A program made the position numbers and the translations under genes. The notes under the pieces are model-generated. The model did not search any database, was not told the DNA's origin, and worked only from the letters and a program-made list of their open reading frames with translations. A DNA stretch of 28,520 bases, from positions 1 through 28,520 of the IMG/VR virus record IMGVR_UViG_2657245664_000013; one strand, written 5' to 3'. Shown here piece after piece: positions 1 to 7,017 of the stretch. The first letter of the stretch is position 1. Every line of letters begins with the position of its first letter. Source of the stretch: a virus. Lineage: Duplodnaviria > Heunggongvirae > Uroviricota > Caudoviricetes.

Positions 1-7
1 AAGAAAT

Positions 8-38
8 AGGGCTTCCACCTGGGAAGCCCTTTCTTTTT
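8..38. terminator. Intrinsic terminator hairpin downstream of pspG, probably bidirectional
   Basis: 9-bp stem AGGGCTTCC / GGAAGCCCT (8-16, 22-30) with loop ACCTG, followed on the plus strand by TTTCTTTTT (30-38). Lies just 3' of the pspG stop on the minus strand. Confidence 0.6.
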
Positions 39-165
39 ATAGTTCGGCTGTATGTAGGGTACAGCACGATGAATCTGTTAGAGGCGCAATAGTGACAGAT
101 TTGATTATCAATTCCTATTTTGTTCTAAGGATAAAACCTTAGGTTGTGATCATCCGCACAATCCC

Positions 166-408
166 TTAGTAACGCCAGCGGTCATAACGCTGATATTTCG
201 GCACTTTTGGTGCTTTAATCGCCTTAATAACCCACACCACCGCAATCGCCAGTAGTAACCACGGCAGCAACTTAATCATCAATGCCAGCATACCGCCGAG
301 GAACATAATGGCCGTCGCCACAACCAGCGCGGCGATAATGCCCAGCAACGAAACGCCGGTGACCATCAGCATGACAAAAAAGCCAATCACAAAAAGTAGT
401 TCCAGCAT
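166..408 (-). CDS. pspG: Phage shock protein G (80 aa small inner-membrane protein)
   Basis: C-terminal 80 aa of the 150-aa track ORF (MLELLFVIGFFVMLMVTG...KAPKVPKYQRYDRWRY) match E. coli PspG as recalled. ATG confirmed at 406-408. The longer 150-aa ORF is an upstream extension. Confidence 0.92.
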   Translation of the reverse strand: MLELLFVIGFFVMLMVTGVSLLGIIAALVVATAIMFLGGMLALMIKLLPWLLLAIAVVWVIKAIKAPKVPKYQRYDRWRY

Positions 409-442
409 GATGCTCTCCCAAATATGAAATCTCTTGCTGGCA

Positions 443-459
443 TTACAAGAATCATGCCA
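443..459 (-). promoter_or_regulatory. Putative sigma-54 (-24/-12) promoter of pspG
   Basis: Minus strand reads TGGCAT-GATTC-TTGTAA (GG-N10-TG architecture), about 35 nt upstream of the pspG ATG with SD-like GGGAGAG between. pspG is known to be sigma-54/PspF dependent. Confidence 0.45.
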
Positions 460-478
460 AAAATAATCTATTGATTTA

Positions 479-512
479 ACAGCAAAACGCCCCGCGACGG
501 TGCGCAGGGCGT
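479..512 (-). terminator. Intrinsic terminator downstream of dusA
   Basis: Minus-strand RNA would form CGCCCUGCG-caccgu-CGCGGGGCG (9-bp stem with one G-U pair) followed by UUUUGCUGUU. Located about 30 nt past the dusA stop. Confidence 0.5.
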
Positions 513-541
513 GGTGAATTTGACTACTTTTTGGTGAAAAG

Positions 542-1579
542 TTAACGCTTATCCGCCACCAGTTTGAGCGCGTGTTCCAGCACATTAATGTCTGCACCCG
601 CTTTATGGGCATTTTCACTTAAATAACGCCGCCACTGCCGCGCGCCAGGAATACCCTGGAACAAGCCCAACATATGCCGGGTAATATGGCCGAGATACGT
701 CCCCTGGCTGAGTTCACGCTCAATGTACGGATACATGGCGCGCACTACCGCCACCGGATCGGCATCGGTATCCGAGGAACCAAAGATCTCCCGGTCTACC
801 GCCGCCAGAATACCCGGATTCTGATACGCCTCGCGCCCGACCATCACGCCATCCATATGTTGCAGGTGTGCTTTGGCCTCTTCCAGCGACTTGATACCAC
901 CGTTAATCGACATTGTCAGATGCGGAAAGTCACGCTTCAGTTGATACACACGCGGATAATCGAGCGGCGGGATTTCACGGTTTTCTTTCGGGCTTAACCC
1001 CGAAAGCCAGGCTTTACGTGCGTGGATGATGAACATCTCACACTCGCCTTTGCCGGAAACGGTATTGATGAAATCGCAGAGAAATTCATAGCTGTCCTGG
1101 TCGTCGATGCCAATACGCGTTTTCACCGTCACCGGAATCGACACCACATCGCGCATCGCTTTCACGCAGTCGGCAACCAGCTGCGCATTACCCATCAGAC
1201 ACGCACCAAACATGCCGTTCTGCACCCGGTCAGACGGGCAGCCGACATTCAGGTTGATCTCATCATATCCGCGCGCTTCTGCCAGCTTTGCACACTGCGC
1301 CAGCGCCGCCGGATCGCTACCGCCCAGTTGCAACGCTACCGGATGTTCTTCTTCACTGTACGCCAGATAATCACCTTTACCGTGAATAATCGCCCCTGTG
1401 GTCACCATTTCGGTATACAGCAACGTATTGCGGGAAAGCAGACGCAAGAAATAGCGGCAATGTCTGTCCGTCCAGTCGAGCATAGGAGCAATGCTAAACC
1501 GAGAACTCCAGTAAGCGCCAGTTTTTTCAGGCATCACGCTGGTTTGATTAGTTTTCTGTGTTTCAGGATTATCGTGCAT
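542..1579 (-). CDS. dusA: tRNA-dihydrouridine synthase A
   Basis: 345-aa ORF with Dus-family TIM-barrel signature ([47 protein letters not shown]). ATG at 1577-1579. The true start may be the internal Met at 1534 (MPEKT). The 5' end abuts the prophage integrase region. Confidence 0.92.
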
Positions 1580-1611
1580 TTTTGAACATTTCAGGCTATT
1601 TTTCTCGCGTT

Positions 1612-1647
1612 AGGTTCCCGCACAGGTTCCCACGTTTTCTGGGAACC
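1612..1647. promoter_or_regulatory. Three copies of a GGTTCCC motif (two direct, one inverted) in the dusA-int divergent intergenic region; candidate operator or recombinase-binding sites
   Basis: AGGTTCCC at 1612-1619 and 1624-1631; inverted copy TGGGAACC at 1640-1647, giving the palindrome GGTTCCCA-N7-TGGGAACC. Sits between the int RBS (ACGAGG, 1655-1660) and the dusA start. Confidence 0.5.
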
Positions 1648-1667
1648 CGAAATAACGAGGTCGTGTA

Positions 1668-2765
1668 ATGGCGTACTATAACATAGAGAAACGACTAAAA
1701 TCCGATGGCACACCACGCTATCGCTGTAATGTGATTATCAAAGAAAAAGGTGTTATCACTTACAGGGAAAGCAAAACATTCCCTAAACATGCTCATGCCA
1801 AAACATGGGGAACACAGAAAGTGATGGAATTAGATCTATATGGCATTCCATCATCAAATGCAGTTGACGGACTTACAGTCCGTGACTTACTACACAAATA
1901 TTTAAATGACCCAAATGCCGGAGGTAAAGCAGGCCGTACTAAAAGATATGTGCTGGAACTGCTTATGGATAGTGACATCTCCGCGATCAAACTATCTGAA
2001 CTGACAGAAAATGACGTAATTGAACATTGCAGGCTAAGAAACAACGCTGGTGCAGGTCCAGCAACAGTCAGCCACGATGTTAGTTATCTTGGCAGTGTTC
2101 TGGATGCGGCCAAACCTGTATACGGAATTAATTACACATCAAACCCGGCGAAAAGCGCTCGCCCATATCTACTTAAACTTGGTTTGATTGGTAAATCAAA
2201 CCGTCGTAATCGTAGACCAGCATCTGATGAACTGGACATGCTCATTGAAGGCCTTCAACAACGATCTACTCATAAATGCTCAAAAATTCCGTTCGTTGAT
2301 ATCCTCAAATTTTCTGTGTGGTCCTGTATGCGGATCGGAGAAGTATGCCGGTTACGATGGGAAGATCTCGACCAGGAACAAAAATCTATACTCGTAAGAG
2401 ACAGGAAAGATCCACGCAAAAAGGAAGGCAACCACATGAAAGTAGCCTTGCTTGGGGAAGCCTGGGATATCGTCCAACGACAGCCAAAAAAATCGGAATT
2501 CATTTTTCCATATAACAGCACTTCTGTTACTGCAGGATTTCAGAGGGTAAGAAGCAAATTAGGTATTAAAGATCTGCGATACCATGATTTGCGTAGAGAA
2601 GGAGCAAGTCGCTTATTTGAGGCTGGTTTTAGTATTGAGGAAGTCGCTCAGGTTACAGGGCATCGTTCATTAAACGTGCTATGGCAGGTATATACCGAAC
2701 TGTATCCGAAATCTTTACATAATCGTTTTGAAGAGCTCCAAAGGAGCAGAAATAAGACCTCTTGA
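1668..2765 (+). CDS. int: Tyrosine site-specific integrase (DusA-associated integrase family)
   Basis: 365-aa ORF with a C-terminal tyrosine-recombinase catalytic region (MRIGEVCRLRWEDLD ... HDLRREGASRL ... HRSLNVLWQVYTELY). Divergent from and adjacent to dusA, the known target of this integrase family. Confidence 0.92.
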   Translation: MAYYNIEKRLKSDGTPRYRCNVIIKEKGVITYRESKTFPKHAHAKTWGTQKVMELDLYGIPSSNAVDGLTVRDLLHKYLNDPNAGGKAGRTKRYVLELLMDSDISAIKLSELTENDVIEHCRLRNNAGAGPATVSHDVSYLGSVLDAAKPVYGINYTSNPAKSARPYLLKLGLIGKSNRRNRRPASDELDMLIEGLQQRSTHKCSKIPFVDILKFSVWSCMRIGEVCRLRWEDLDQEQKSILVRDRKDPRKKEGNHMKVALLGEAWDIVQRQPKKSEFIFPYNSTSVTAGFQRVRSKLGIKDLRYHDLRREGASRLFEAGFSIEEVAQVTGHRSLNVLWQVYTELYPKSLHNRFEELQRSRNKTS

Positions 2766-2813
2766 CACTGTTTATCCATACAGTTAAAAATAATACTGTA
2801 TACAAACACAGTA
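2762..2813 (+). promoter_or_regulatory. Sigma-70 promoter with two tandem LexA (SOS) boxes controlling the dinI-like gene
   Basis: Perfect -35 TTGACA (2762-2767), 17-nt spacer, -10-like TAAAAA (2785-2790). LexA box 1 CTGT-N8-ACAG at 2768-2783 (in the spacer); box 2 TACTGTATACAAACACAGTA at 2794-2813 (over the predicted start site). Confidence 0.7.
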
Positions 2814-2826
2814 TAGAGGGACTTTT

Positions 2827-3075
2827 ATGCGTATTGAGATCTGCATAGCCAAAGAAAAAATGACTAAAATGCCAAACGGTGCTGTGGATGCGTTAAAGGA
2901 AGAATTAACCCGACGCATCAGTAAACGTTATGACGATGTAGAGGTGATCGTAAAAGCCACCAGCAACGATGGGCTTTCTGTTACACGCACCGCAGATAAA
3001 GATTCTGCAAAAACATTTGTTCAGGAGACTCTGAAAGATACCTGGGAGTCTGCTGACGAGTGGTTTGTTCACTAA
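2827..3075 (+). CDS. dinI: DinI-family protein (SOS-inducible RecA modulator), prophage-encoded
   Basis: 82 aa. Shares the DinI signature with E. coli DinI as recalled (MRIE..IAK....P.GA.DAL..EL.RRI ... LSV ... QET..TWESAD.WFV). SD AGAGGG lies 6 nt upstream of the ATG. Confidence 0.88.
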
Positions 3076-3190: not shown

Positions 3191-3775
3191 TTACATTGTG
3201 TCTGGTTCTTCCGGCCACTCAATATCAGGTGCAGTTGATGTATCAACACGATTCAACAACACCCGATATGTCTTCCATGCCGCCAGTAACGATGTCTCTT
3301 CCTCCGTTGCGATTTCCAGATCTGCAGCATCCTGAAGCGGCGCAATATGCTCACTGGCTACCCGCATGAGGCTGTTTTTTGTTTCTTCCGCCTCCCGTAT
3401 CCGAAACAGTTTTTCTGCTTCTGCATCTTTCACCCAGGTTGTGCCGTTCCACTTCTGATATTCCCCATCCGGCGACAACCAGGTGACATTTTCTGGTAAC
3501 GGGCCGAGTTCAGAAATAAATAACGCGTCACCTGATGCCACGTCATAGACCGTTTTTCCCCTGTGGTCTTCAACGAGATGCCATGATGTATCCTTACTGT
3601 TAAAAACAGCCACGAAGCCAGCCGGAATATCTGGCGGTGCAATATCGGTACTATTTGCAGGCAGACCTGTATGAGGGGGAATGTATGCATCACCTTCACC
3701 AATAAATTCATTGGTTCCGGCCAGCAGATTATAAATTTTTATAGTCCGTGGTTGTACACTCATTCTGAATGCCAT
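3191..3775 (-). CDS. tfa: Tail fiber assembly protein (lambda Tfa-like)
   Basis: 194 aa, near-identical in pattern to lambda Tfa as recalled ([59 protein letters not shown]...). ATG at 3773-3775 overlaps the stf stop. Confidence 0.92.
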
Positions 3776-6700
3776 TATGCAAGCCTCACAATATAGTTAA
3801 ATGCGATGTTTTTGACGGTGTTTTCCGCGTTACCAGCAGCGTTTACGGTGATGGTGTGTCCATGTGAACCAATCGCAACGGAGTGTGTATGAGCGCCAAT
3901 ATCAACAGTATGTGCGTGTGCGCCTGCACTTGCAGCAGTACCTGACACCGTGTGGGTATGCGCTCCGGCTGACGATGTGCCAGTACTCGAGTCTGAACGA
4001 GACGCACCTTTGAGGGCTCGATCGCCCTGCTCGGTATTGCCATATGGGTAACAGGCAACCGTGTGTGTATGTGCCCCTGCAGAAGCAGCCGTACCACTGA
4101 CACTATGGGTGTGCGCTCCGGTGTTATTCGTGGACCTGGTACCATAATTAAACGAACTGGTAGTTTTCGTCCCCAAATCCGTACTGGATGCACTGGCACT
4201 GTGGGTATGCGATTTAATGCCGTCCTGTTCCTGAGACAATACGGCCCGACCACTGGCAGGTTTGCCCTTAATCGTCCAGCCACGCATATCAGGGATCACG
4301 CCTGACGGATAAGCCGCTGCAAGTTTCGGGTATGCAGATTTGTCAAAAGCCTGCCCCTGCATCAGGGCATAGCCAGACGGAACGGTATCTGATGGCCACG
4401 GGATTGGTGCGCCGACTGGGTAGCTTTCTGGTGGAAGATTTTTCGAGGTATAAACTTCTGCCCAGTCTTCCTCAAAACCATAACCGTCTCTTGAAGAACG
4501 GTAGAACAGACCACCATTTCTGTAATGCGCCTTCATCTGCAAGGTCCGGCAACTTCCGACTCCGGTATAGAAGTTAACCAGAATATAGCTGTCGCCAGAG
4601 CGGGTGACATTATAAGCGCCTGATTCGGCATTCCAGGGAACGCCACCATCCGCATCGGCATATGTATCCGTTGCCCTTCTGGCAAAAGCGGCCACATGCG
4701 CGGCGGTTAAAGTGATATCAGTAGAACCATCAAATGGAACACCGGATATTTTTCTTGCAGTCTGAAGTTTTGTAGCAGTTGCAGCATTACCAGTGGTGTT
4801 CTGATTACCCGTAGTGTTTACACCTGGAAGGTTAATATTTGCAGAACCGTCGAAAACAACTCCACCGATAGATCTTGCCGTCTGCAATTTCGTGGCTGTA
4901 CTTGCATTACCATTCAATGAACCAGTTAATCCACCTGTAACAGACAACGGACCTGAAACTGTTCCTCCGGTTGTTGGCAGTGCACCAATATCTGATGGTG
5001 TAGGTTTCTGATGTGAGCTATACATCGTATAAACAACACCATAGGTAACGCTGGAAGGCTTACTCGCTGAATATGTTGGCGAGGTATAAACAGAAACTGA
5101 CGCATTTGCAGTACAATCCCAATGGATATTTACACTCGTCGCATATTTGCCAATCTCAACGTAAATATCATATGTATCGCCGGATGTGTTGATCCAGGCG
5201 AAATTCGTTAATCCGACGGCTGTACGCTTCCACAAAGCCCCGGTAATTCCTTTGGGGTTTCCATTGCCTGCTCGTAGAACCAGTTCTGAAATGCCTGCCT
5301 GATGTGGGGAACCGACGTTGTAACCAGCGCCACCAATCAATGCGATGTAAACGATGGAACTCGCTTGTGGCATGGTAACCGTAGCCAGTTTGAACCACCC
5401 AGCCCCGTCAAAGAAAGACATCGTTACTGAATTTAAAGTACCAATATCTTTCGGCGTTAATGTTATATCCGCAGTCAGTGCTTTTCCGTTAACTTTTCGG
5501 TTAGATGGCACCCTGCTATTCGCATTGTCATTGGCTGCTTTAACTGCTTTTGGCGTTGCGGCCAGCGATTCACTGGTGCTATCAACAGCACTGCTAAGTT
5601 TCACAACACCTTTAGTTGTAAGGCTTGCGTCTTCCATCGCAACTGCACCGGCAATCTCTTCAGCACGATCAGCAGCAGCTTCCGCACGGGTCGCAGCGGA
5701 TTCAGCAGCAGTTTTGCTCTGAGATGCTGCCGTCGCACTGCCTGCCGCCTCTGTTGCTTTCGTGGATGCCGTCGTGGCGCTGCCCTTCGCTGCTGACGCC
5801 TGTCTGGTCGCCTCATCTTTTGAAGCAGACGCAGATGATGCCGATGACGCTGCCGAACTGGCGGACGATGCGGCTGCCGTTTTTGAGGATTCTGCACGGG
5901 TTTCCGACGCTTTCGCGTTCGTCTCGGATGTCTTCGCTGCGGAAGCAGACCTCGCTGCTGCACTGGCCTGTTCAGTGGCTTCGCCAGCCTTCGTTGTGGC
6001 TGTTGAAGCAGACGAGGCGGCACTTTCTGCCGACTTTCCGGCAGCGGTGGCACTGGCTGAGGCCTGCCCGGCACTTGTTGACGCGGCACTGGCAGATGAT
6101 GCTGCCGCTGTTTTTGAGCCTGCCGCAGCTGAGGCGCTCTGTCCCGCTGCCGTTTCAGAAGACCTGGCGTTCGTCTCTGACGTTTTTGCCGCCTTCGCGG
6201 AATTGCCTGCCGCCGTTGCCGAGGAGGCTGCACTGCTGGCGCTTGTGGAGGCGTTCGTTTCTGATGATTTTGCCGCCTCTTTGGAGGCAGCCGCATCTCT
6301 GGCTGAAGTGGCGGCTTCTGACGCTTTCGTCGTCGCAGTGGATGCAGAAGTGGCTGCTGATTGTTGTGACGCTGCCGCATTCGTTTCTGACGTTTTCGCG
6401 GCACCGGCACTGGTGGCCGCCGCGCTTTTTGAGGACTCTGCAGCGGCAGCACTTTTTGACGCTTCCGTGGCCTTTGTTGATGCCGTTCCTGCGCTGGAAG
6501 AAGCCTCCTGAGCCGACGTCGCGGCCTGTCCGGCTGACGTGCTGGCTGCACGTGCTGAATCTGCAGCATCAGTCGCATGGGTTGCCGCCTCACTGGCTGA
6601 TGTGCCGGCATCACTGGCTGACTTCTTCGCGGCTGCCGTGTTCTGTGCCACTGCGGACGCGTTACGCGCCACCTCTTCCACCATCAGTTCAAAACGGCGC

Positions 6701-7008
6701 AGTGCCTCCGGACGGGCATCATCCTCCGTCATGGCACCGAGAAAATCATTCAGCGTCCCCGGCTTTGAATCCTCATACACGGTGATGGTCCCGGCATGTG
6801 ACGGCGGGAATCCTTCCACCATCAGAATAACGCTGTACTGACCGTACTCAACGTCCATGCTGTAACGCCCGGCTTCATCCGGATTTTCTGAGGCCAGCGT
6901 GTTCACCACGACCGTGGTACTGTTACGTTTTGCCTTCAGCTGAATGGTGCAGTTCTGTACCGGTTTCCCTGTGCCGTCTTTCAGTACACCTGAAATCTTT
7001 ACTGCCAT
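3775..7008 (-). CDS. stf: Side tail fiber protein (lambda Stf-like N-terminus, long Ala/Ser/Thr-rich region, fibre-repeat central part, His-rich gp37-like C-terminus)
   Basis: N-terminus [26 protein letters not shown] matches lambda Stf. C-terminus carries repeated GAHTHxV motifs and ends [18 protein letters not shown]. The track start at 7014 is GTG; the ATG at 7006-7008 with upstream GGGGTGA is preferred. Confidence 0.9.
5634..6654 (-). repeat. About 1 kb in-frame low-complexity coding repeat (A/S/T-rich, recurring AKTSETNA / SAATSAS units) inside stf
   Basis: Roughly 340 aa of degenerate tandem Ala-Ser-Thr units. The GC-rich repetitive codons generate long spurious ORFs in other frames and on the opposite strand. 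Confidence 0.75.
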
Positions 7009-7017
7009 ATTCACCCC

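Follow-up and report, generated by a model that had tools for sequence, protein, structure and literature searches.

Evidence that a lambdoid prophage with a DusA-associated integrase meets its host inside dusA

The 28,520 nucleotides studied here (positions 1 to 28,520 of IMG/VR record IMGVR_UViG_2657245664_000013, hereafter the window) carry near their left end a dusA gene and a phage integrase gene that lie side by side. This arrangement raises the question of where host DNA ends and phage DNA begins, and of which of the two provides the start and the promoter of dusA. The original prediction for this locus placed phage-derived DNA at 1480-1667, with the attL core inside dusA and with the first dusA codons and the dusA promoter of phage origin. 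The comparisons reported below make it very probable (roughly 95%) that a lambda-like (lambdoid) prophage with a tyrosine integrase of the DusA-associated type has its attL junction at 1476-1667.

Gene layout at the left end of the window

The left part of the window was matched by every complete E. coli genome compared (5426/5426), and 734 of the 5426 also had this integrase gene beside dusA. The first 541 bases were identical to K-12 (541/541) and contained pspG (166-408, minus strand; placed by reference to the K-12 RR1 annotation in RefSeq), the host gene downstream of dusA. A consensus scan identified a terminator-like hairpin, with a 10-pair stem followed by a T run, directly past the dusA stop codon (487-512, minus strand). 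The dusA gene itself (542-1579, minus strand) was an intact ORF of 345 amino acids, with a Pfam Dus match at residues 30-340 and assignment to the NCBIfam DusA equivalog. The neighboring gene, int (1668-2765, plus strand), encodes a 365-residue tyrosine integrase of the DusA-associated family (Pfam PF00589, Phage_integrase). As had been proposed, int adjoins dusA in divergent orientation with no gene between them, the spacer being 88 bp long and free of ORFs.

Downstream of int was a DinI-like gene (2827-3075, plus strand; Pfam DinI), ahead of which a promoter-like site at 2762-2791 scored 10/12 in the consensus scan; the annotation of phage mEp460 also marks this site as a promoter. From past this gene to the end of the window there were long minus-strand ORFs, which in other E. 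coli genomes matched late genes of lambdoid prophages (tail fibre, host-attachment protein J, tape measure, portal and terminase). The exact prophage was not found among the complete E. coli genomes, the best match having ~96% identity over 89%. No tRNA gene was identified in the window, and no Rfam family matched the dusA-int junction region. Elsewhere, a full-length Rfam match to IS009 (RF02111; 199 bits versus a gathering score of 117) was located at 3234-3432 on the minus strand, within a 194-residue ORF (3191-3775, minus strand) at the end of the tail-fibre region. In the side tail fibre ORF (1079 residues; 3775-7014, minus strand), a long low-complexity stretch rich in Ala, Ser and Thr contained DNA repeats (5899-6404) and gave rise to long spurious ORFs in other frames.

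A shared core within dusA marks the crossover

Four types of site were aligned: attL, represented by the window; attP, from the free phages mEp460 (JQ182728) and SKA5 (OR670062); attR, from the lysogens RM9088 and MS20657; and attB, from the empty sites of K-12 RR1 and strain 536. An att core, TCGAGCAT, was common to all four and lies at 1476-1483, where it spans dusA codons M33-L34-D35 at the start of the conserved APMLDWTD motif, the point at which the Dus domain begins. The core was bounded on the left by host-specific AG versus phage-specific TA, and on the right by phage-specific A versus host T or C. At attL, host sequence ending in GTCCGTCCAG was followed by TCGAGCAT and then by phage sequence beginning AGGAGCAATGC; at attR, phage sequence ending in GTACATCCTA led through TCGAGCAT to host sequence beginning TGGTGCAACGC; and at the attP of mEp460 and SKA5 the two phage halves were joined. 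In RM9088 and MS20657 alike, the core at attR is followed by the displaced host 5' fragment, and PGAP has labelled that of RM9088 as a partial tRNA-dihydrouridine synthase.

Pairwise comparisons changed at the same point. Positions 1-1483 were identical to K-12 (1483/1483), including the host-derived dusA body from codon 36 to the stop codon (542-1475, minus strand; 934/934), which was 97.2% identical to that of strain 536, and the next 96 bases matched K-12 at 78/96. All 18 mismatches in these 1579 bases fell within the last 96, a distribution that by our own arithmetic has a chance of ~1e-22 if mismatches were uniform. On the phage side, 1484-1667 matched the mEp460 attP at 182/184, and the host side at 1400-1475 was unrelated to the phage attP arm (23/76). 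In both mEp460 and SKA5, window 1476-2800 forms one uninterrupted stretch in the middle of the genome, with the other flank unrelated to dusA; the comparison of mEp460/SKA5 with the window gave 95/96 identities in the dusA start (dusA'), 87/88 in the spacer and 1081/1098 in int.

Together, these data established the junction and its core and showed that 1484-1667 came from the phage, with the crossover within the 8-bp core at 1476-1483, inside dusA. The phage-derived interval that had been proposed was within 4 bases of the actual one, which runs from the att core to the int ATG, and the four-way att comparison bore out the expectation of an attL core inside dusA. For annotation, the prophage boundary belongs within dusA at 1476-1483 and not in the intergenic region. 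No second copy of the core was found in the 28.5-kb window, which has a single core-like site, and the other prophage end lies outside it; the evidence for attR comes from the related lysogens RM9088 and MS20657.

The core of the mEp460 attP sits in a dyad, TCCTAT-CGAGC-ATAGGA, the right half-site of which (ATAGGA) corresponds to window 1482-1487. Such a dyad would fit an overlap of 7 bp with a core-type half-site on each side (TCCTA-TCGAGCA-TAGGA).

The phage supplies the start of dusA and the DNA upstream

Codons 1-32 of dusA (1484-1579, minus strand) and everything upstream of them are supplied by the phage. These 96 bases matched mEp460 at 95/96 and SKA5 at 90/96, compared with 78/96 for K-12 and 37/96 (ungapped) for strain 536, and the prediction that the first codons were of phage origin was upheld. 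In SKA5 the depositors labelled the small dusA' ORF 'tRNA-dihydrouridine'. The intact 345-residue reading frame spans the junction, and the DusA of such lysogens is a chimera of host and phage parts. The true start of the gene is probably the first ATG, because ATGCAC was invariant in the sequences aligned, the length was always 32 codons and the version in a Pluralibacter element has no internal Met.

The 88-bp spacer between the two genes (1580-1667), which is the distal part of the int-side attP arm, was 87/88 identical to the mEp460 attP, and it must hold the promoters of both dusA and int. In the related lysogens the dusA body is separated by ~41-42 kb of phage DNA from the region that used to lie upstream of it, and any dusA promoter would therefore be phage DNA. 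From this topology, and by analogy with the mobile element IMEVchUSA3, we infer that the dusA promoter is phage-supplied, in line with the original prediction. A consensus scan for sigma-70 promoters found none in 1350-1800, the spacer included. Alignment suggested a candidate dusA -10 element, AAAAAT (1598-1603, minus strand), 18 nt ahead of the ATG and below the threshold of the scan; the pattern AAWAAT was invariant in all six sequences aligned (the window, mEp460, three other int-linked elements and K-12). A search for RNA structure in the putative dusA leader and spacer gave nothing significant (z = -1.09).

Integrase, candidate arm sites and a model for integration

The catalytic residues of Int (R222, H306, R309, H332 and Y342) aligned with those of XerA. 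Its amino acid identity was 100% to the phage Lys8385Vzw integrase, 99.7% to the phage 1720a-02 integrase and 52-56% to the integrases of Salinivibrio phage SMHB1 and of Vibrio, Shewanella and Pseudoalteromonas phages. The layout of int with a divergent dusA' recurred in SMHB1 and EKP1 (OM284015.1), two distant phages with Int identities of 56% and 67%, respectively, and the dusA' of SMHB1 reads ...RFSVAPMLDW before diverging. No Pfam arm-binding family matched Int residues 1-70, and there was a weak Int_N match at residues 72-165 (E = 0.03). A single-sequence AlphaFold2 model of Int had a pLDDT of 41 and was unusable.

The spacer contains three copies of a short repeat, GGTTCCC, within 35 bp, when ~3 copies would be expected across the whole 28.5-kb window. 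We interpret these as candidate arm-type Int-binding sites: site 1, GGTTCCCG (1613-1620, plus strand); site 2, GGTTCCCA (1625-1632, plus strand), at a 12-bp spacing from site 1; and site 3, GGTTCCCA in inverted orientation (1640-1647, minus strand; GGTTCCC copy at 1641). Two further copies were found on the opposite arm in mEp460, giving a 2 + 3 layout of GGTTCCCA and an attP of ~235 bp. EKP1 also had a 2 + 3 layout, with the motif GTACACC and near-identical spacings (11, 186-187 and 12 bp). The spacing of sites 1 and 2 was 12 bp in the window, 12 bp in EKP1 and 11 bp in SMHB1, and an inverted third site was also present in EKP1 and the Pluralibacter element, with the motif GTACACC(A). In SMHB1 the repeat was CAGTCTCCC, with 1 + 2 direct copies and one inverted copy on the single-site arm, and on the int-side arm of the Pluralibacter element (L018) GTACACCA and TGGTGTAC formed an inverted pair. 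The repeats lie at 1613-1647 in the window, 1432-1450 and 1630-1664 in locus L005, 347-365 and 544-579 in L088 (EKP1), and 187-224 and 411-432 in L087. Conserved geometry combined with a lineage-specific motif is the pattern expected of arm-type integrase sites, and the repeats probably bind Int. This candidate map offers concrete targets for a possible coupling of Int binding to dusA or int transcription.

In the model that best explains these features, the phage attP of ~235 bp consists of an arm with two short repeats, the core TCCTA-TCGAGCA-TAGGA, and a second arm made up of a 96-nt imitation of dusA codons 1-32 and the 88-bp spacer with its three repeats, up to the int start codon. Int recombines the 7-8 bp attP core with its exact counterpart in dusA (codons 33-35). 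Integration fuses the host body (542-1483) in frame to the phage codons 1-32 and phage upstream DNA, and DusA therefore stays full-length, at 345 residues, and is expressed from phage signals. What was the 5' end of dusA persists as a stump beyond the far prophage end, and Int, presumably helped by a PrtN-like directionality factor whose gene lies near that other end, would restore the original gene by excision.

The prophage in the window is probably still mobile today. Its int ORF is intact and retains all catalytic residues, the encoded Int is 100% identical to that of an isolated phage, the attL arm matches a functional phage attP at 182/184 and long uninterrupted late-gene ORFs fill the remaining window. 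These features make it unlikely that the junction is frozen, that is, that the prophage is a defective remnant unable to excise and 1484-1667 now a fixed part of the host gene, even though the far end and the directionality factor lie outside the window, the tape-measure gene of the related prophage in MS20657 is frameshifted and fixed relics of the DusA-associated family do occur (the K-12-type yjbLM region and the decayed int genes of loci L063 and L068, both considered below).

The K-12 dusA start as a likely fossil

The dusA loci of K-12 and strain 536 diverged completely, exactly at the att core. The alleles compared were those of K-12 RR1 (L001, 2976-4500) and strain 536 (L002, 2975-3191), together with loci L007-L086. 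Strain 536 encodes a DusA of 331 residues (MPAESHTVYPAYRFSIAP followed by MLDWT) with zur 155 bp upstream, and K-12 has a long form of dusA with the yjbLM pseudogene between dusA and zur. A short N-terminus was present in 67 of the 80 Enterobacteriaceae species loci, including those of E. albertii, E. whittamii and Escherichia sp. E1V33. In all of these but one truncated locus zur was detected upstream, at ~130 bp from dusA in the Escherichia loci just named. The 32-codon form (MHxNxE...) was found in two settings only. In the first it adjoins an int homologue (99%, 82%, 70% and, in a frameshifted copy, 64%); in the second it adjoins a zur-displacing insertion with no int, or with a marginal int trace only. 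We read the int-linked and int-less 32-codon loci as a decay series, with decayed int genes in L063 and L068. The N-terminus of K-12 DusA shared 22-23 of 32 residues with the int-linked versions, and the GC content of the K-12 insert was 31-39% versus 52-57% in dusA.

From these comparisons we consider it likely that an ancient DusA-associated element left the K-12 dusA start (its 32 codons, the promoter region and the adjacent yjbL/yjbM pseudogene) behind as a fixed fossil and, as part of the same proposal, that the attP of this family has conserved five-site arms with lineage-specific repeats, three of them in the dusA/int spacer. An int remnant upstream of K-12 dusA was sought by tblastn and none was found; a 16-nt DNA match to the int start scored 22, against a mean of 17.7 and a maximum of 26 for shuffled sequences, and so lacked significance. 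The yjbLM region had no match among sequenced phages. With neither an int remnant in K-12 nor a phage match for the cargo, the case for a fossil therefore rests on comparative evidence. We found no mention of a yjbLM/dusA relic in the parts of the searched literature available to us. Durand et al. took the K-12 N-terminus as native and described the N-terminus of their own element as of "identical length", with 61% identity (PMC8409611); equal length and this degree of identity would fit an element origin for both.

The two alleles split the 5426 E. coli genomes exactly, into 4303 long (79%) and 1123 short. That the long type is the majority allele, and that the phage copies of the dusA 5' end were ultimately captured from some host, could be taken to mean that the long K-12-type 5' end is ancestral in E. 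coli and was copied by phages, with the short 536-type derived. This order of events appears quite improbable given the short N-terminus of E. albertii, E. whittamii, Escherichia sp. E1V33 and most other species loci (67/80), the restriction of the long type to sites beside an int homologue or a zur-displacing insertion, the divergence of K-12 and 536 exactly at the att core and the low GC content of the K-12 insert.

If the K-12 start is indeed a fossil, present phages would usually enter a relic attL and not a pristine attB, since the fossil start is carried by 79% of genomes. The 'native' K-12 DusA N-terminus, an experimental baseline, would itself be element-derived, and studies that treated the K-12 N-terminus or promoter as native, e.g., that of reduced dusA expression after IME integration (PMC8409611), would need re-reading. 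The proper baseline would then be short-type strains such as 536.

Phage junctions were found with both types of stump, 339 long and 21 short. Their frequency was lower on the short type (21/1123 versus 339/4303 for the long type), a comparison that is confounded by phylogeny. Short-type hosts differ from the core by one base (TCAAGCAT in 536), the variable base being window 1478 within the shared 8 bp. A block to integration by this mismatch was considered and rejected, as 21 genomes join the phage arm to a short-type stump and MS20657 is a full lysogen of the short type. Both attL and attR of MS20657 carry the host core variant TCAAGCAT (L090, 42742-42749 and ~880-890); either the incoming phage already had TCAAGCAT or the heteroduplex was repaired.

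The form of the K-12 start also bears on how the window aligns with prophage-free genomes. In a megablast search with window 1-2800, K-12-type prophage-free genomes aligned over 1-1582, beyond the start codon, at 98-99% overall; with the short-type allele, that of strain 536, the match ended near 1492 and the sequences past there were unrelated. The K-12-type empty sites align past the ATG because the 5' end of K-12 dusA resembles the phage copy (78/96), and we take this part of the alignment to be homology of the phage segment to K-12's own element-like 5' end (81%) and not host continuity. The original prediction had called for alignment with an unoccupied dusA and had named identity through the start codon as the sign of an intergenic att site; the identity to K-12 was complete over 1483/1483 bases and then dropped to 78/96, so that the alignment reached 1582 as 81% homology, with 18/18 mismatches past the core. 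An att site in the int-dusA intergenic region, with the whole of dusA including its start codon being host DNA, is a reading that the alignment past the ATG might seem to favor but that has practically no probability left, being already contradicted by the confinement of all 18 mismatches to 1484-1579, by the 95/96 match of the same 96 nt to the free phage mEp460, by attR junctions that switch from phage to host at the core and not in the intergenic region, and by short-type empty sites that cease aligning near 1492. A naive comparison with an "uninfected" reference can thus mislead, as the K-12 gene start looks like a phage copy.

Comparison with known systems

The arrangement is already well described, and the prophage is an ordinary member of a well-characterised family. 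The DusA-associated (DAI) family was defined by Farrugia et al. 2015, who described the dusA 5' end as element-derived and the original gene as restored by excision, which was shown experimentally for islands of Acinetobacter and Pseudomonas; their supplementary table includes E. coli phage lysogens (PMC4482086). [quoted passage not shown] Like the DAI elements, the prophage has int beside dusA, a conserved 5' insertion, semi-conserved direct repeats at the ends and an element-derived 5' end, and no substantive difference sets it apart from other members; in the parts of PMC4482086 available to us there was no mention of the arm repeats or of the K-12 fossil.

The closest experimental precedent is phage 1720a-02, or Phi-stx2dact, which integrates 100 bp into dusA (Balasubramanian et al. 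2019, PMC6328086). A seven-base core was conserved in its attL, attR and attB, a 184-bp phage segment encodes "PhidusA'" in frame with the rest of dusA, and a delta-int mutant lost attP formation, i.e., excision was Int-dependent (PMC6328086). The segment at window 1484-1667 is also exactly 184 bp. Nucleotide 1 of the 1720a-02 sequence (KF030445.1) corresponds to window 1475, and nt 1-193 matched window 1475-1667 at 186/193. The two thus share an insertion ~100 bp into dusA, the 184-bp core-int segment and the position of int beside attL, but they differ in cargo and structural modules, the window having no stx, and the 1720a-02 experiments were performed in Citrobacter rodentium.

With mEp460 and SKA5 the prophage shares attP, int and the dinI-like module at 98-99% nucleotide identity; unlike the window, these two are virion DNA with an intact attP, and their other modules are mosaic. 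RM9088 (L003, 21668-42800) shares the int/attP/dinI module, with 99.7% identity across window 1-2800, and combines it with a late region for a contractile tail (sheath, baseplate), compared with the lambda-like tail in the window. The integration module thus appears to move between unrelated phage bodies. In the bloodstream isolate MS20657, the Q antiterminator of the related dusA prophage is closely followed downstream by two toxin-like genes (L090, 14861-16035), annotated as a subtilase-family AB5 toxin binding subunit and a scabin-related ADP-ribosyltransferase. In Stx phages, this is the place of stx. 'Elizabethkingia phage EKP1' has, in addition to its 67% identical Int, an enterobacterial-style dusA' ORF (MHQNEENKK...RFSIAPMLD) and PrtN-like and DinI genes. 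The assignment of EKP1 to an Elizabethkingia (Bacteroidota) host looks doubtful, because to our knowledge the DAI family has been reported from Proteobacteria only.

Among the Vibrio dusA-specific elements, which include IMEVchUSA3, excision needs the PrtN-like RdfN, encoded across attP from int (Durand et al. 2021, PMC8409611). Genes of the PrtN family were found at the equivalent place near attR in mEp460, RM9088, MS20657 and EKP1. Unlike the prophage, elements of the IMEVchUSA3 type are mobilizable islands under the control of IncC plasmid activators, and their integrases are distantly related (PMC8409611). The attP also resembles that of lambda, with ~235 bp, inverted half-sites round a 7-bp overlap and repeats on both arms (2 + 3). 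Unlike that of lambda, its target is inside a protein-coding gene, and one of its arms doubles as the replacement start of that gene.
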